DNA of 37,239 nt from an uncultured Ectothiorhodospiraceae bacterium (GTDB lineage Bacteria > Pseudomonadota > Gammaproteobacteria > GCA-002705445 > GCA-002716945): the NCBI GenBank assembly GCA_964342155.1, contig CAYFEQ010000001.1, positions 64,761 through 101,999 of the forward strand. The letters are read 5' to 3'. Both the position numbers and the translations under genes were made by a program. The notes under the pieces were generated by a model, which had not been told where the DNA came from, did no database searches, and saw only the letters and a program-made list of their open reading frames with translations. Positions 16,492 through 33,819 of the stretch are shown in pieces; positions within the stretch are counted from its first letter, which is position 1, and each line of letters opens with the position of its first letter.

Positions 16492-16944
16492 ATGTTTAGA
16501 GGCATACATAATATAAATCTTGACGCTAAAGGTAGGCTAGCTATCCCTACTAAGTATAGAAGCGCCATAAATGATCAATCATCTGGGAATATGATAATTA
16601 CAGTTGATCCAGGTGAAAAATGCCTTCTGCTTTACCCGCTATCTTCTTGGAATGATATTGAGAAACAAATCAATGACTTACCTGCTTTTCAAAAAAACTC
16701 CCGTAGAGTACAAAGATTATTAGTTGGTCATGCAGAAGATATACAGATGGATAAAGCTGGAAGAATTTTAATATCTCAGCCCTTAAGAGCTATCGCAGAA
16801 TTAAGTAAAAAAGTCACGATGATTGGCCAAGGAAAAAAATTTGAAATTTGGGGAAATAATCACTGGGAAAACAAGATATCAAAATGGAGGACTGAAGAAA
16901 CAGATGAGTCTGAAGAATCGGTTTTAGGAGGAATTAGAATCTGA
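16492..16944 (+). CDS. mraZ: Transcriptional regulator MraZ
   Basis: MFRG...NLDAKGRLAIP and MDKAGRILI repeats, GQGKKFEIW; likely start is the ATG at 16492. Confidence 0.95.
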   Translation: MFRGIHNINLDAKGRLAIPTKYRSAINDQSSGNMIITVDPGEKCLLLYPLSSWNDIEKQINDLPAFQKNSRRVQRLLVGHAEDIQMDKAGRILISQPLRAIAELSKKVTMIGQGKKFEIWGNNHWENKISKWRTEETDESEESVLGGIRI

Positions 16945-17141
16945 TGGATATAACAAGGTGTTTTAGAACATTGGGTATAAGTGGTCATGAAGATATGAGT
17001 GCCATCAAAAAGGCTTTCCTTAAAGTTGCTTTGAAATATCACCCTGATAAAACAAAAAATGATGTTAATTTGCTTCAAAGATTTATAGAAGCTCGGAATG
17101 CATATGACAGCATCATCAAATTTAAAAAGGCTATTAAATGA
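16944..17141 (+). CDS. Stand-alone J-domain (DnaJ-domain-only) protein, 65 aa
   Basis: LGI...IKKAF.K.ALKYHPDK...F..A.NAY J-domain signature with intact HPD; AGGAGG at 16926-16931; TGATG overlap with mraZ and ATGA overlap with rsmH. Confidence 0.88.
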   Translation: MDITRCFRTLGISGHEDMSAIKKAFLKVALKYHPDKTKNDVNLLQRFIEARNAYDSIIKFKKAIK

Positions 17142-18085
17142 GTAACTTAGCAAAACATGTGCCAGTCATGCAAAATGAATCACTTAATGCATTAAATATA
17201 CAAAAAGCTGGGATTTATGTTGATGCTACTTTTGGTTTTGGAGGTCATTCTCAAGCCATATTAAGTAAATTAGATGAAGAAGGCAGGCTATATGCGATAG
17301 ATAAAGATACTTCAGCAATTGAATTAGCAGATAAAAGAATTATAAAAGATGAAAGATTTACCCTGAAACAAGGATGTTTCTCCTCTCTTGAATCCTTTTC
17401 AAAAGAATGGGGAATTCAAGGGTCAGTAAATGGCATATTATTTGATCTTGGTGTTTCATCTGAACATTTAGAAAATCCAAAAAGAGGATTTAGTTTTCTA
17501 AGAGAAGGCCCAATTGATATGAGGTTTGATCAAAGTTCAGGTAATTCTGCAGGTGATTGGCTGGCTTCAGTTAGCGAAAACACGTTAGCTAAGATAATTA
17601 AAGAATATGGAGATGAACGTTACGCAAAAAGAATCGCCAAAGGGATTGTTACTGAAAGGGTTAAAGAAAGGATTAATACTACTAAAGATTTAGTAAATAT
17701 AATCAATAAAGCCATACCAAAAAATGAAACCAAAAAACATAATGCAACGCGAACATTTCAAGCAATCAGAATACATATCAATCAAGAATTAGAAACACTT
17801 AAGAAATCATTAGAAAAAACTTATAACATATTAGCTCCAAAAGGAAGGTTGGTATTGATAACATATCATTCCTTAGAAGAACGAATAATAAAGGATTTTA
17901 TAACTCTTACAGATAAAAGTTTATCTGCACCAAAAGACTTACCTTTAACTGAACAATTTCTAACAAAGATGTTTAAAATCATCAACAAACCGCTTAAACC
18001 TACAGACGAAGAAATAGAAATTAATAAAAAATCTAGATCAGCAAAACTAAACGTTTTAGAGAAATATAATGAAAATAATTCTTAA
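17138..18085 (+). CDS. rsmH: 16S rRNA m4C1402 methyltransferase
   Basis: HVPVM, YVDATFGFGGHS, LFDLGVSS, RGFSF..EGPIDMR, ATRTFQAIRI.IN.EL and YHSLEERI motifs. Confidence 0.95.
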   Translation: MSNLAKHVPVMQNESLNALNIQKAGIYVDATFGFGGHSQAILSKLDEEGRLYAIDKDTSAIELADKRIIKDERFTLKQGCFSSLESFSKEWGIQGSVNGILFDLGVSSEHLENPKRGFSFLREGPIDMRFDQSSGNSAGDWLASVSENTLAKIIKEYGDERYAKRIAKGIVTERVKERINTTKDLVNIINKAIPKNETKKHNATRTFQAIRIHINQELETLKKSLEKTYNILAPKGRLVLITYHSLEERIIKDFITLTDKSLSAPKDLPLTEQFLTKMFKIINKPLKPTDEEIEINKKSRSAKLNVLEKYNENNS

Positions 18086-18338
18086 TATTTCAATTTTTTT
18101 TGTGATAGCTTTTTCATCTTTTTTAGTTATATATACTAAACATCAAAATAGAATTATGAATATTCAAATAGAAAGTGTTGAAAAAGAATTATCAATAAAA
18201 GTTAATCAATATAAGGAACTATTAAATATCAAAACAAATTTATTAGAGAAAGAATTAATGAGAGAGGGGTTTAAGAAGAGTTTAGGGATGGATATACCCT
18301 CAAAAGATAGAATTATTTATTTAGATTTAGCTGAGTAG
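18069..18338 (+). CDS. ftsL: Cell division protein FtsL
   Basis: Small bitopic protein right after rsmH: N-terminal TM helix, H..R, coiled coil and LGM..P tail. Confidence 0.75.
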   Translation: MKIILNISIFFVIAFSSFLVIYTKHQNRIMNIQIESVEKELSIKVNQYKELLNIKTNLLEKELMREGFKKSLGMDIPSKDRIIYLDLAE

Positions 18339-18354
18339 GCTGGAGGTTAGTAAT

Positions 18355-19497
18355 ATGTTTGAGTTAATTGAAAATTATAGTCAGAATGCCGTGATTAAAG
18401 TCATTGGTGTTGGCGGTGGCGGCGGAAATGCTGTTCAATCGATGTTAGAGTCAAAGATACACGGTGCTGAATTCATAGTAGCGAATACCGATGCTCAAGC
18501 TTTGAATGACATAAAAGGTGCCACAACAGTCCAATTGGGTTCTGAAATTACAAAAGGACTTGGAGCAGGTGCTGATCCAGAAATAGGTAAGCAGGCTGCA
18601 GATGAAGATAGGGATAAGATTCAAGATGCAATACAAGGAGCTGATATGTTATTTATTGCTGCTGGTATGGGAGGTGGCACTGGGACAGGTGCAGCACCTG
18701 TAATAGCCCAATGTGCACATGATATGGGCATCCTAACGGTTGCAGTTGTAACAAAACCATTTGATTGGGAAGGAGTTGAAAGGAAGAAACATGCCGATGA
18801 TGGTATAGCTAAATTAGAAGATTGGGTTGATTCTCTAATTATTCTTCCAAACTCTAAACTTGAAGAAGTCTTTGGTGGGAATGCACCAATATTTGATGCA
18901 TTTGTCCATGCAAATGATGCTCTTCGAGGTGCAGTTAAAGGTATCGCTGAGATAATAACCATTAGAGGTTTAATTAATGTTGATTTTGCAGATGTTAAAA
19001 CTGTAATGTCAGGTAAAGGTAAAGCTATGATGGGATCTGGTGTTGCAAGAGGTGAAGGACGCTCGGAAGAAGCAGTAAGTCTGGCTCTTAGCAGTCCTTT
19101 ATTAGAGAATATCGATCTACATGGTGCTAGTGGTGTTTTAGTTAACATTACTGCAGGAGAAGACCTATCTGTCAGTGAATATAATAGCATTGGAAATACA
19201 ATAAAACAGATTGCTGCAGATGATGCAACAATCATTACGGGTTGTATTAAAGAAGAAGATGCAAGTGGTGAACTTAGAGTTACTATCATCGCAACAGGTT
19301 TTGATGAAAGTAAAGAATCTGAAGAATCTACAACATTGACGGATGAAAAACAATTAGAAAATCAGGTGTCACCATTAAGACCAGTTCAAGAAACTATGTT
19401 TGAAGAAAAATCACCTCAACTTTCAACTGATAATTCTGAAAGTAAAGATGGAGATGATTTAGACATCCCTGCTTTTTTAAGGCAACAAGCTGATTAG
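18355..19497 (+). CDS. ftsZ: Cell division protein FtsZ (unusual position)
   Basis: IKVIGVGGGGGNAV, GAGADPEIG, GMGGGTGTGAAP, INVDFADV and C-terminal DIPAFLRQQAD; GGAGGT RBS at 18342-18347. Confidence 0.98.
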   Translation: MFELIENYSQNAVIKVIGVGGGGGNAVQSMLESKIHGAEFIVANTDAQALNDIKGATTVQLGSEITKGLGAGADPEIGKQAADEDRDKIQDAIQGADMLFIAAGMGGGTGTGAAPVIAQCAHDMGILTVAVVTKPFDWEGVERKKHADDGIAKLEDWVDSLIILPNSKLEEVFGGNAPIFDAFVHANDALRGAVKGIAEIITIRGLINVDFADVKTVMSGKGKAMMGSGVARGEGRSEEAVSLALSSPLLENIDLHGASGVLVNITAGEDLSVSEYNSIGNTIKQIAADDATIITGCIKEEDASGELRVTIIATGFDESKESEESTTLTDEKQLENQVSPLRPVQETMFEEKSPQLSTDNSESKDGDDLDIPAFLRQQAD

Positions 19498-19500
19498 AAA

Positions 19501-21240
19501 ATTATAAACAACAGCAGACAAAGCGCATGGCGGCAATATTTCATTTACCTTATTGCCGCCACTTTTTTTATATTTATTTTAATAAGAGTAGTATTACTTC
19601 AAGTTTTTGATACTGACTGTTTTTTATTAAATAAAAATAAATGTAAAAACAACTTAAGTTCAGTTGCAGATAAACGCCAAATTGTTAATAGAGTTATTGA
19701 TACTAGTAGAGGAACAATATTTGATAGAAACAATGAAATCCTCGCAATGAGTCTTCCAAGAAAAACATTATGTATTAATCCAAATATGTTAAGTAAACTC
19801 TCCAAAGAAGAAATAATAAAATATAAACCACTATTAAAAATACTTGCAACTGATGAAACTAGATTTTGGAAATTGATAAACAAATATAAAAAAAGAAAAG
19901 AGTTTTATCTTAGAAGAAAGATCAATGACAAATTAGTTTATAAAATTAATCAATTAAACCTACCTTTTGTATATTTTATTAAAGAATATCATCGTGTATA
20001 TCTTGGAGGTAAAGCCTTTTCAAATGTAATTGGCTTTACTGATATAGATGATGTTGGTCAAGAAGGGATTGAATTGTCTAAAAATGAATCACTTACATCA
20101 ACAAAAGGGTTAAAGAAAATAAAAAAAGATAATTTAGGTAGATCCATCCAAACTATTGAAATAATTAAACAACCAATTTCTGGAAAAGATATTTATTTAT
20201 CATTAGACAAAAATATTCAAATAATTGGTTATAACGTCTTAAAGAAATATGTTGAAAAATATTCAGCTGATAGTGCATCTTTAGTACTTGTTAAAAATAA
20301 AACTGGAGAAATTATTTCTATGGTAAATTACCCAGCATTTAATCCAGACATTCGACATGAGATGAAAGGAGTTAAAATAAAAAACAGAGTAGCTACTGAA
20401 GTATTTGAACCAGGATCTACAATGAAACCTTTCATTATCCTTGCAGCCTTAAATGCTAATTCTGTCAATCAGCAGGACTTAATAGATACGACACCAGGTA
20501 TAATCAAAATTGGTGAAAAAAAAATTAAGGATCCACGTAATTATGGGAAATTAACACTCTCACAAATTATTGAAAAATCGAGTAATGTTGGAGCTGTTTT
20601 AGTATCTAGGAGTTTAGATAAAAAAGATTTATGGAATACATTAACATCATTACAATTTGGACAGAACTTGTATACTGGTTTTTCCGGAGAACAATTTGGT
20701 GAACTAAATCATCATTCACAGTGGAAGTCAGTTAATCAGGAAACGATAGCTTATGGTTACGGAATTTCTACAACATTACTACATTTATCTAGCGCATATT
20801 CTATTCTTGCAAATCATGGAAAATCTATACAACTAACTTATTTAAGAGTTGAAAGCGATGATGAAATTTTTGAGGAAGATATTATTGATGCAACTTTATC
20901 AAAAGATATATTGAAAATGATGATTCAAGTAGTTAAAAAAGGAACAGGAACTAAGGCATCTTTAGATAAATATACGGTTGCTGGTAAGACGGGGACCGTT
21001 CAAATCTTAAAGAAAAAAGGATATACATCAGAGGAACATAATACATTATTTGTGGGAGTAGTCCCCGCTACTAATCCACAGTATGTTGCTGCTATAATAG
21101 TTAGAAAGCCTAATCCAGGTAAAGATAAGGTATCAGGTGGAAAAAATGCTGCTCCGATTTTCAAAGAATTTATGAGTCAATCACTAAACCTTTTAAGGGT
21201 ATATCCAGATAAAAAAATAGTGGAAAATGAAAAAGAATAA
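19501..21240 (+). CDS. ftsI: Septal peptidoglycan transpeptidase FtsI (PBP3); start codon non-canonical or unresolved
   Basis: The frame is open from 19498 and reads KIINNSRQSAWRQYFIYLIAATFFIFILIRVVLLQV...SRGTIFDRN, giving the WR motif, TM helix and RG.I.DR. Catalytic motifs are EPGSTMK, SSN and KTGT. The first ATG (19747) would remove the membrane anchor. Confidence 0.9.
   Translation: MINNSRQSAWRQYFIYLIAATFFIFILIRVVLLQVFDTDCFLLNKNKCKNNLSSVADKRQIVNRVIDTSRGTIFDRNNEILAMSLPRKTLCINPNMLSKLSKEEIIKYKPLLKILATDETRFWKLINKYKKRKEFYLRRKINDKLVYKINQLNLPFVYFIKEYHRVYLGGKAFSNVIGFTDIDDVGQEGIELSKNESLTSTKGLKKIKKDNLGRSIQTIEIIKQPISGKDIYLSLDKNIQIIGYNVLKKYVEKYSADSASLVLVKNKTGEIISMVNYPAFNPDIRHEMKGVKIKNRVATEVFEPGSTMKPFIILAALNANSVNQQDLIDTTPGIIKIGEKKIKDPRNYGKLTLSQIIEKSSNVGAVLVSRSLDKKDLWNTLTSLQFGQNLYTGFSGEQFGELNHHSQWKSVNQETIAYGYGISTTLLHLSSAYSILANHGKSIQLTYLRVESDDEIFEEDIIDATLSKDILKMMIQVVKKGTGTKASLDKYTVAGKTGTVQILKKKGYTSEEHNTLFVGVVPATNPQYVAAIIVRKPNPGKDKVSGGKNAAPIFKEFMSQSLNLLRVYPDKKIVENEKE
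19528..19569 (+). terminator. Intrinsic terminator-like hairpin downstream of ftsZ, inside the ftsI coding sequence
   Basis: TGGCGGCAATA (19528-19538) and TATTGCCGCCA (19551-19561) form a perfect 11-bp GC-rich stem, followed by C and T7. Confidence 0.8.
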
Positions 21241-22630
21241 TAAAGATATTATACAAATTTTAAATTTTATAAAGAAAAATACTTCTAAAAACCAAGATAT
21301 AGATAAGGTTTTAGCATGGAATAGTAAATTAATTAAAAAAGGACAAATTTTTTTTTCTATAAAGACTAAATCATCAAAAAGATATAGCTACATAAAAGAA
21401 GCTTTAGAGAGAGGAGCGAAAGCTGTCATTTCTGATGTCCAACTAAAGAATATCCCTAACTTTAATAATATACCTATTTTATATTGTAAATATCTAAAAG
21501 ATAATCATAATGAATTTCTTAATTACATATATAAAAACCCATTAAATAATATTAAGGTAATTGGAATAACGGGTACTGATGGAAAGACATCGCAATTACA
21601 TTTACTTGCACAAAGTTTGCACCTTAGTGGAAAAAAAATAGGTATTATCTCAAGCGAAGGCAATGGTATTTATCCAAGGCTAAATAAGTCAGATTATACA
21701 ACGCCACGAGTTGATATTTTATTTAGATATTTTAAAAAATTCAGTATATCTAAAGTTAATATTGTACTTATTGAATGCTCATCTCAAGGAATACAGCAGG
21801 GAAGAATAGATAATATTAAATTTGATATGAGTATTTTAACTAATATTAATAAAGATCATATTGATTATCATCATTCATTGAAGAATTATATAAAATCTAA
21901 AATAAAATTATTAAATATGACAAAAAAACATATCTTTATTAATGAAAACTGCTCTACAACAAAAAAGAATATAAAACTAATAACCACAAAAGCCAAAAAG
22001 AATTTATTTAATCTTAATGTGGATATTGATTATAAAAATAAAAAACTAATGGGTACTATTTCTAATTATTATAATATATGTGTGATTATAAAAATTCTTA
22101 AATTAGAAAAGATACCAGTAAAAAATATTTATCAAATTATATGCAAACTTAAGCCTATTAGTGGACGAAACCAGTTTGTAAAAACTAAAAATAGAGGAAC
22201 GTTTGTTATTGATTATGCTCACACGCCAAGTTCATTATTAACTCTTCTAAAGACTGTTAACTTTTATTCTATATTGAGTGATGGTAAGCTAATCACTGTC
22301 TTTGGATGTGGTGGCGAAAGGGACATTTGGAAGAGAAAAGCTATGGGCATTATATCATCGGAATTTTCTAATCATGTAATCTTAACCGATGATAATCCAA
22401 GAAATGAAGAATCAATGAGAATAATTAATGACATTAAAAAAGGTATAAATAAAAAAACAAACCTTTCAATTATACCTTCTCGAAAAAAGGCAATAATGAA
22501 GGCTGTTTCATTAGCAAAAAAAAATGATTACATTGTAATTGCAGGAAAGGGAAGTGAAAATGATATTATATATAAAAATCGTATTATCAAACATAATGAT
22601 ACAAAAGTGTTAAAGGAAATTTTAAAATGA
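21227..22630 (+). CDS. murE: UDP-MurNAc-tripeptide (meso-DAP) ligase
   Basis: GITGTDGKTS, TTP, TNINKDHIDYH, IDYAHTP, VFGCGGERD, DDNPRNE (DAP-type) and AGKG motifs. Confidence 0.92.
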   Translation: MKKNNKDIIQILNFIKKNTSKNQDIDKVLAWNSKLIKKGQIFFSIKTKSSKRYSYIKEALERGAKAVISDVQLKNIPNFNNIPILYCKYLKDNHNEFLNYIYKNPLNNIKVIGITGTDGKTSQLHLLAQSLHLSGKKIGIISSEGNGIYPRLNKSDYTTPRVDILFRYFKKFSISKVNIVLIECSSQGIQQGRIDNIKFDMSILTNINKDHIDYHHSLKNYIKSKIKLLNMTKKHIFINENCSTTKKNIKLITTKAKKNLFNLNVDIDYKNKKLMGTISNYYNICVIIKILKLEKIPVKNIYQIICKLKPISGRNQFVKTKNRGTFVIDYAHTPSSLLTLLKTVNFYSILSDGKLITVFGCGGERDIWKRKAMGIISSEFSNHVILTDDNPRNEESMRIINDIKKGINKKTNLSIIPSRKKAIMKAVSLAKKNDYIVIAGKGSENDIIYKNRIIKHNDTKVLKEILK

Positions 22631-33714: not shown

Positions 33715-33819
33715 TGTATGAATTTTGTCATAATATAGGGGCATATTACTTATAAATTGGGGGTTTTTCCTTAACAAATATAGCGAAAAACCATATACTT
33801 TATTAACTGCTATAAAACT

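Follow-up and report, generated by a model that had tools for sequence, protein, structure and literature searches.

In a 37,239-nt stretch of DNA (the window) from an uncultured Ectothiorhodospiraceae bacterium of the Gammaproteobacteria (GenBank assembly GCA_964342155.1, contig CAYFEQ010000001.1, positions 64,761 to 101,999 of the forward strand), the division gene ftsZ stands directly upstream of ftsI, and ftsI has no canonical start codon in front of its membrane helix. This arrangement is conserved throughout the order to which the organism belongs; the 83 codons upstream of the first canonical start are coding, and the beginning of ftsI forms a hairpin that covaries across the order and is followed by an enrichment of T. 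We propose, with a probability of about 60%, that ribosomes which have terminated on ftsZ begin again at a near-cognate codon close to its stop, in the window ATT (19501) or ATA (19504), and that the terminator-like hairpin lowers expression further. The identity of the start codon, the dependence on ftsZ termination and the role of the hairpin are what we infer from sequence.

The junction of ftsZ and ftsI

The ftsZ gene (18355-19497, + strand) is closed by a TAG (19495-19497, + strand) that follows the codons GCT GAT. Behind this TAG the same frame continues with AAA ATT ATA AAC AAC AGC AGA CAA AGC GCA TGG CGG and remains open to 21240, giving an ftsI open frame of 580 codons (19498-21240, + strand). 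No ATG, GTG, TTG or CTG is present in the ftsI frame between 19498 and 19746; the earliest in-frame ATG, GTG or TTG is the ATG of codon 84 (19747-19749, + strand), which lies downstream of the membrane-helix codons and is an implausible start. A preliminary description of the junction, made from the letters of the window, had reported the in-frame continuation into an FtsI N-terminus and the absence of all four codons up to 19747, and is correct in every detail. Its statement that ftsI has no canonical start also stands, with one nuance: the start codons of NCBI translation table 11 include ATT, ATC, ATA and CTG, and ftsI is without a common start codon, though not without every possible start. 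The candidate near-cognate starts are ATT (19501-19503) and ATA (19504-19506, both + strand), 3 and 6 nt past the ftsZ stop, either of which may be the one used. As the preliminary description had also noted, there is no obvious Shine-Dalgarno (SD) sequence: the sole SD-like word near the junction is TAAGG (19478-19482), 18 nt upstream of the ATT and thus too distant. It is part of the last seven codons of ftsZ (TTA AGG CAA CAA GCT GAT TAG, 19477-19497, + strand), which also contain the rare Arg codon AGG.

Pfam identifies Tubulin (PF00091) and FtsZ_C (PF12327) in the product of 18355-19497, which scores 408 bits against NCBIfam TIGR00065 (cut-off 295) and is encoded by the only ftsZ copy in the genome. 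The product of 19498-21240 has a PBP_dimer domain (PF03717, 2.9e-17) and a Transpeptidase domain (PF00905, 1.2e-62), both above cut-offs, behind an N-terminal membrane helix, the architecture of a class B penicillin-binding protein (PBP). The active-site motifs of class B PBPs are SxxK, SxN and KTG, and the translation predicts STMK, SSN and KTG. The N-terminus, WRQYFIYLIAATFFIFILIRVVLLQV, consists of a cytoplasmic tail and a single membrane helix with a W-R motif that is also present in outgroup FtsI, and alignments to the NCBIfam FtsI/PBP2 models begin at ORF residue 15-18. Against the FtsI subfamily model NF011685 the protein reaches 295 bits, below the cut-off of 737; it appears too diverged for this enterobacterial model, and its identity is based on its domains and on its place before murE in the dcw cluster of division and cell-wall genes. 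No other division-type class B PBP was found in the genome: a second match has 29% identity, is longer and looks like PBP2.

The upstream codons of ftsI are translated

Codons 11-83 of ftsI have a dN/dS of about 0.13-0.18 among the three closest species and most changes are at third positions, indicating that the codons before Met84 are translated in the ftsI frame. A start at Met84 was discarded because codons 11-83 are under purifying selection. Synonymous divergence of the first ten codons (19498-19527) is about half that of codons 11-83, with small counts. In the strain of metagenome run X14, two substitutions (C>T at 19741 and C>G at 19743) change CTC to TTG two codons before the ATG at 19747, still behind the helix.

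Late canonical starts are exceptional in this genome (1.1 Mb, about 30% G+C, 59 contigs). Among 786 stop-to-stop open reading frames (ORFs) of at least 200 codons, ftsI ranks first for lateness of the first canonical start: codon 84, where the median is 5 and the 99th percentile 38. Of the six outliers that rank next, five go back to runs of N (contigs C7, C1 and C17 have scaffold gaps) and one to a chance-open upstream stretch; the window itself has no N. The chance of 83 sense codons without ATG, GTG or TTG, calculated from the codon frequencies of the genome, is P = 0.037. A genome-wide habit of start-less genes is rejected by the ranking, which is blind to a canonical codon near a non-canonical true start.

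All of the stretch or a portion of it is present in 20 listed runs from 12 studies of marine plankton or seawater metagenomes, and contigs of four of these runs were compared with it. A DNA contig of run X2 (19261-19623) has no differences, and one of run X14 (18924-20109) has 10, the nearest at 19582; the junction is unchanged in both. Among the differences listed there is no substitution or indel within 19441-19581, with four further differences not itemised. Run X4 covers the stretch from end to end, but the sample may be the one from which the assembly came. The contigs of the RNA run X15 cover parts of ftsZ, with none over 19613-21300, and were not used as evidence; one ends at 19512, 15 nt past the TAG, and was not counted as bridging.

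These data bear on the simplest explanation of the missing start, namely an assembly error, the fresh loss of an ATG in a dying gene, or a start at Met84 that yields an unanchored protein. Decay may occur in the order, as one relative has an ftsI with 11 in-frame stops. Yet the same junction is found in contigs of independent runs and in metagenome-assembled genomes, the full-length frame is open in relatives, the dN/dS of codons 11-83 is that of a constrained protein, and the genome has no other division-type class B PBP among the matches found. To the extent that sequence can tell, artefact and decay are refuted, and we consider them the least credible of all explanations discussed here. The one-base error or mutation of an ATG, which the preliminary description had offered as an option, is contradicted by the X2 and X14 contigs, the relatives and further metagenome contigs; the check for an assembly error that it had recommended was done on contigs.

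A start-less ftsI behind ftsZ is conserved across the order

The order, whose members are marine bacteria with very small genomes, consists of one family with 37 species-level genomes of about 0.6-1.2 Mb in six genera, and the ftsI 5' region could be obtained for 34 loci, including the one of the window. At 33 of these 34 loci ftsZ is directly upstream of ftsI, and the 34th ends at a contig edge; the full order ftsL-ftsZ-ftsI was found in 13 of the first 15 loci, which are all those whose flank reached ftsL. An ATG, GTG or TTG ahead of the hairpin and membrane helix is absent from 29 of the 34 loci. The remaining five have a canonical start (ATG or TTG) at offsets of +13, +15, +25 (two sister species) and +28 from the ftsZ stop, and these scattered positions look like sporadic gain, not ancestry. 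Seven of the 29 start-less loci have an ATG or GTG within the 3' arm of the hairpin, inside the helix, which is not common to sister species. In six informative outgroup genomes from the same class, ftsI comes straight after ftsL and has an ATG or GTG at the expected place. The move of ftsZ and the disappearance of the canonical start from ftsI thus go together and are old.

The ftsI gene of one relative, genome G031 (69% complete; locus L021, G031:C3:40535-42211), has 11 in-frame stops (3 TGA, 4 TAG and 4 TAA). Its ftsZ frame is broken too, while junction and hairpin are intact; the locus is either a decaying copy or poorly assembled.

Relative to ftsZ, ftsI is in frame 0 in the genus of the window (4 loci) and in frame +1 in the five other genera (30 loci). 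In the +1 genera the ftsI frame opens 17 nt ahead of where the ftsZ stop ends and is closed by a TAA further upstream. The ftsZ stop itself is TAG, TAA or TGA, depending on the locus.

The shared frame of the window had led the preliminary description to consider that readthrough of the TAG produces a minor FtsZ-FtsI fusion, which would tether FtsZ to the septal transpeptidase; in another version of this view the fusion would supply all FtsI. The topology of such a protein would be allowed, as the FtsI N-terminus is cytoplasmic, and 4 of 4 species of the genus, together with three metagenome contigs, have the two genes in one frame with no further stop between them. Natural fusions of dcw neighbours, for example MurE-MurF, are described in the accessible part of PMC10214165. 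However, the frame is +1 at all 30 loci of the other five genera, which have the same start-less design and hairpin, and such a variation of the junction frame among genera is the very outcome that the preliminary description had named as refuting a fusion. The species of this genus with an ATG (L004) is also in frame 0; the shared frame is therefore a single event that was inherited, and its prior is one in three. Programmed readthrough is also difficult to reconcile with the variable stop codon. The genome has prfA (RF1) and prfB (RF2), both above NCBIfam cut-offs, and no suppressor was found among its 28 identified tRNA genes, a set that is incomplete. TAG is a regular stop that ends 124 of the 786 long ORFs (TAA ends 487 and TGA 175). 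Usual readthrough stimulators are located about 8 nt from the stop, and the hairpin, at 30 nt, is too far away; no recognisable slippery site is present at the +1-frame junctions. We regard a functional fusion as very unlikely. An alternative genetic code with TAG as sense codon was excluded by the same data: long ORFs end at each of the three stops, the genome has both RF1 and RF2, and none of the 28 tRNAs found is a suppressor.

Two further recoding events were considered and dismissed. A +1 frameshift in the last ftsZ codons of the +1 genera finds no slippery site, a judgement that rests on general rules of frameshifting, and a TAA keeps the +1 frame closed up to a point 17 nt from where the stop ends. 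Translational bypassing that departs from the final codon of ftsZ was discarded on sequence alone: the first in-frame GAT or GAC lies behind the membrane helix.

Two observations on reading frames stand apart from these arguments. In two species, at L005 (G004:C1:399091-400794) and L006 (G009:C1:62874-64577), ftsI and murE seemingly share a frame that has 1045 codons and is interrupted by one TAG, which would be another same-frame junction of the cluster. The prfB ORF (L017:1063-2064, - strand, contig C3) matches the RF2 model from position 28 only; this would fit the usual programmed +1 frameshift near the prfB start.

Candidate start codons at the ftsZ stop

At each of the 29 start-less loci an ATT, ATC, ATA or CTG begins at a position from -8 to +6 nt relative to where the ftsZ stop ends. 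In the genus of the window this is an ATT or ATC at +3 and an ATA at +6: the sequence AAA-ATY-ATA is kept in three species, and TAG AAA ATT/ATC ATA in the metagenome contigs L057-L059. The other five genera have a CTG at -8, formed by the FtsZ Ala-Asp codons GCT GAC/GAT, and/or an ATT at -5, formed by GAT TAA. At seven loci the codon near the stop is the sole table-11 start before the hairpin. ATT and ATA make up 5.1% and 4.0% of all codons, and finding such a codon near the stop therefore says little by itself. The ftsZ tail has the rare codon AGG (14% of Arg), and in three genera also the rare GAC (16% of Asp). The +1 genera have TAAGG 7 nt upstream of the CTG, suggestive of a weak SD site, though it represents one or few evolutionary events. 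An argument from codon choice in favour of the CTG found no support, as GCT is also kept where the CTG is out of frame.

In the part of PMC10666635 available to us, termination-reinitiation in E. coli and Haloferax works in this stop-proximal range and falls steeply beyond about 10-20 nt; the candidate offsets of -8, -5, +3 and +6 all fall in the coupling range of about -8 to +10 nt that we draw from it. AUA, AUC, AUU and CUG initiate at about 1-2% of AUG in E. coli, according to the accessible sections of 10.1101/063800. Whether the restarting ribosome is a 30S or a 70S particle is unsettled, as far as the available part of PMC12548453 goes. Re-initiation at ATT or ATA coupled to ftsZ termination, the first option of the preliminary description, is the best fit to the comparison, given the kept AAA-ATY-ATA and the near-cognate codon within -8 to +6 nt at 29 of 29 loci; both the start and the coupling remain putative.

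The same codons may instead be used by 30S subunits that initiate de novo on the A-rich spacer between stop and hairpin, independently of ftsZ termination, with the hairpin serving as attenuator or as stabiliser of the ftsZ mRNA 3' end. The 30 nt of the spacer are A-rich and predicted unpaired, T is enriched past the stem, five genera have the TAAGG 7 nt before CTG, and a precedent for de novo initiation at ATA with an SD seems to exist in the same lineage. In infC, an AGGAG or GGAG is found a few nucleotides upstream of a conserved ATA at 30 of the 30 loci listed (by eye; L018, L060, L061-L089), and a conserved in-frame ATG 7-8 codons past this ATA has no spaced SD; the infC of this genome is on contig C3, minus strand, at about 44791-45320. 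The lineage thus probably already uses ATA as start codon in infC, which also lends weight to our main proposal; the arrangement is similar to the AUU start of E. coli infC and suggests that ATA is a usable start here and that IF3 still discriminates against such codons. For ftsI, however, the genus of the window has no SD at a usable distance (18 nt to the ATT). The candidates are always within -8 to +6 nt of the stop, which de novo initiation does not require, even if this position is partly forced by the opening of the ORF there, and terminating and initiating ribosomes would compete for the same 20-30 nt. De novo initiation is in our view rather unlikely, and more plausible than the fusion.

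A conserved hairpin at the beginning of ftsI

The RNA hairpin of the window (19528-19561, + strand) has a 5' arm at 19528-19538, a 12-nt loop at 19539-19550 and a 3' arm at 19551-19561. It is separated from the ftsZ stop by the A-rich spacer (19498-19527, + strand; 30 nt) and is followed, one base (C) past the stem, by a run of seven T (19563-19569, + strand); stem and T run together have the predicted layout of an intrinsic terminator. The 5' arm opens at the Trp codon of a WRQY motif and the 3' arm is within the membrane-helix codons (YFIYLIAATFFIFILIRVVLLQV, 19534-19602, + strand), with which the hairpin overlaps. The stem has 11 bp, six of them G-C pairs, and the 101-nt fold of this region has a z-score of -3.62. 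Its codons are unusual for the genome: CGG is the rarest Arg codon (1.5% of Arg) and GCC, present twice in succession, is used for 8.6% of Ala.

When the 110 nt past the ftsZ stop are folded by minimum free energy, a hairpin of 9-15 bp is found at 34 of 34 loci, 21-30 nt from the stop and mostly with -12 to -20 kcal/mol. Covariation was analysed in two sets, a MAFFT alignment of the 22 sequences outside one genus (g5) and the 12 sequences of g5. In the first set 95.5% of alignment cells are paired, in comparison to 29-58% with slid partner columns, four pairs have compensatory changes (10 cells) and not one of 500 shuffles attains the score for covariation. The g5 hairpin has another sequence and a 4-nt loop; 95.8% of its cells are paired and five pairs are compensatory (14 cells). 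Slid-column controls over both sets gave 24-65% paired cells. As the aligned sequences are related, the shuffle figures overstate covariation; the complete replacement of the arm sequences between genera with pairing kept is a stronger argument. RNAalifold unaided finds the same helix with 11 pairs. There was no Rfam match at E <= 1 for 18000-21000, and the ftsI 5' regions of the six outgroup genomes have no consistent equivalent of the hairpin.

At least six T in the eight positions after the stem are found at 18 of the 34 loci. Control windows placed 12, 24 and 36 nt deeper in the same T-rich helix-coding stretch reach this count at 2, 4 and 0 of 34 loci. The T run also offers another route to ftsI: translation could start at the out-of-frame ATG at 19527-19529 and change frame at the T7, by transcriptional slippage or ribosomal frameshifting. 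Of the 10 start-less loci outside g5 in the subset checked first, 8 have an ATG that overlaps the Trp codon, and three species of the genus have T7-T8 runs after the stem. An A before TGG is however expected from A+T-rich third positions, and the W-R motif upstream of the T run is already in the ftsI frame and common to outgroup FtsI. The length of the T run varies (7, 8, 8) with the ftsI frame kept, and most other genera have no T run there. Slippage is to us even less credible than the fusion.

Three species have canonical ATGs at +25 or +28 that are located at, or within, the stem's base and would be masked by it. Neither the displacement of ftsZ, nor the distribution of the trait across the order, nor the covarying hairpin was part of the preliminary description.

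Proposed coupling of ftsI to ftsZ

We return to re-initiation by ribosomes that have terminated on ftsZ. FtsI would start at a near-cognate codon a few nucleotides from the ftsZ stop, which in sister genera is a CTG or ATT overlapping the stop by 8 or 5 nt. Because there is no properly spaced SD, initiation would be mostly by ribosomes that have just terminated on ftsZ, and the heavily translated ftsZ would supply them. The hairpin may then slow expression a second time, by one or several of three routes: as an attenuator, as a barrier to post-termination ribosomes, or as a mask for close start codons. As an attenuator, it would fold while a ribosome sits on the ftsZ stop and not while a ribosome translates into ftsI; judged from the footprint size of the ribosome, the unpaired A-rich spacer of 30 nt just fits one ribosome between stop and stem. 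The weak restart codon would in this way reduce not only the translation of FtsI but also how much transcription enters ftsI and the 13 genes that follow. Besides this, or instead of it, the stem could act like a ribosome termination structure against post-termination ribosomes. Attenuation is possibly the main role, at a little under even odds; a scanning barrier or start mask is a somewhat weaker candidate and any other main role is doubtful.

Several observations weigh against this proposal. The CTG and ATT near the stop of the +1 genera are by-products of the conserved FtsZ tail (Ala-Asp-stop) and no independent evidence, and the GCT is kept in the genus of the window too, where the CTG is out of frame and serves no start. 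An Ile codon is expected by chance in most A+T-rich stretches of 10-15 codons. The published efficiencies of near-cognate codons are for SD-driven de novo initiation in what is available of 10.1101/063800, and the termination-reinitiation cases in the accessible text of PMC10666635 used canonical starts. An intrinsic terminator is expected to have a short loop (3-8 nt) and a T run in all members, but the 12-nt loop is long for a terminator, a simple scan with a loop limit of 8 nt did not list the hairpin, and 10 of the 34 loci have fewer than five T in the eight positions after the stem. Finally, at 21-30 nt the stem is further from the stop than the peak of ribosome termination structures at about 5 nt (PMC7518266).

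The predicted consequence is that output drops by a fixed step between the abundant FtsZ and the scarce FtsI, and probably also the packed mur and fts genes, without internal promoters; it would replace the internal promoters that raise ftsZ in E. coli. That the layout keeps FtsI scarce relative to FtsZ is probable. More tentative, and on balance doubtful, is the wider claim of a selected, order-wide design in which FtsI is made only by ribosomes just off FtsZ and a translation-gated attenuator hairpin sets the ratios of FtsZ to FtsI and to the mur and fts products at both RNA and protein level, without a regulator or internal promoter.

Gene order of the cluster

The dcw cluster is complete in the window and on the + strand: mraZ (16453), an ORF with a DnaJ domain (16944), rsmH (17138), ftsL (18069), ftsZ and ftsI are followed by murE, murF, mraY, murD, ftsW, murG, murC, murB, ddl, ftsQ (31769), ftsA (32461), lpxC (33820) and secA (35090). 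Pfam was run on 10 of the 19 cluster ORFs and the remaining names are based on position and length only. The E. coli-type order of the cluster is mraZ-rsmH-ftsL-ftsI-murE...ftsQ-ftsA-ftsZ-lpxC; ftsZ of E. coli is at the distal end and raised above the upstream genes by internal promoters. The order of the window is equal to this apart from ftsZ, an extra murB and the DnaJ-domain ORF, and lpxC and secA follow the cluster. The difference is that ftsZ is promoter-proximal, between ftsL and ftsI, and ftsA is followed directly by lpxC, with a gap of 105 nt (33715-33819). The ftsZ gene begins 16 nt past ftsL (gap 18339-18354) and has its own SD (GGAGG, 8 nt, ATG); the other dcw genes mostly overlap or abut their neighbours.

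The DnaJ-domain ORF (16944-17141; 65 codons; Pfam 1.4e-11 for the J domain) between mraZ and rsmH is an unusual insert for a dcw cluster. It has a strong SD (GGAGG), and its ATG shares one base with the mraZ stop TGA.

Relation to known systems and significance

Each component of the junction has known relatives. In E. coli, infC and pcnB are the only confirmed genes with an AUU start, as stated in the part of 10.1101/063800 available to us, and they share with ftsI that an essential or housekeeping gene is held at low or regulated output by a near-cognate start. These genes however have an SD and are initiated de novo, whereas ftsI has no usable SD, its putative start codon is at the stop of a highly translated gene, and this codon and even the reading frame vary between genera. 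Termination-reinitiation is known from overlaps of -4, -1 and -8 nt and from gaps of a few nucleotides (accessible parts of PMC10666635 and PMC12548453); the offsets of -8, -5, +3 and +6 are in range and the dcw genes are packed alike, but the known cases in these parts have ATG, GTG or TTG and often serve equal subunit stoichiometry, while ftsI has near-cognate codons and a presumed large step-down.

Ribosome termination structures are proposed to be an energy barrier to ribosomes that scan after the stop, possibly doubling as terminators (PMC7518266). Like them, the hairpin is a stable, selected fold that lies downstream of a highly expressed gene's stop. It differs in its position: ribosome termination structures peak about 5 nt past the stop in untranslated RNA, while the hairpin is 21-30 nt past the stop, in the helix codons of the next gene and with room for one ribosome before the stem. 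With intrinsic terminators and attenuators it shares a G+C-rich stem and T run (T7), and a translating ribosome would block its folding, as described in the available part of PMC12548453. Unlike these it has a 12-nt loop in this genus, a T run that is weak or absent in part of the order, and a position inside an essential coding sequence, and termination at this hairpin is predicted. The junction thus combines known kinds of elements, near-cognate starts, coupling and intra-operon attenuation, in a conserved and compact form at an unusual place. We found no description of an ftsZ directly upstream of ftsI or of a start-less ftsI in the literature covered, which does not extend to subscription journals.

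E. coli has thousands of FtsZ and roughly a hundred FtsI per cell, a ratio credited to internal promoters and dcw regulators. Gene callers restricted to ATG, GTG and TTG would start the ftsI of this lineage at codon 84 and thereby drop the membrane anchor. If our proposal is true, the junction is a natural, conserved case of re-initiation at near-cognate codons, and a regulatory RNA structure has been written into membrane-helix codons with the help of rare codons. With genomes of about 1 Mb, this lineage seems to set its FtsZ to FtsI ratio by gene order and RNA sequence alone, with three parts: the abundant gene in promoter-proximal position, a near-cognate restart codon and a hairpin in the next coding sequence.

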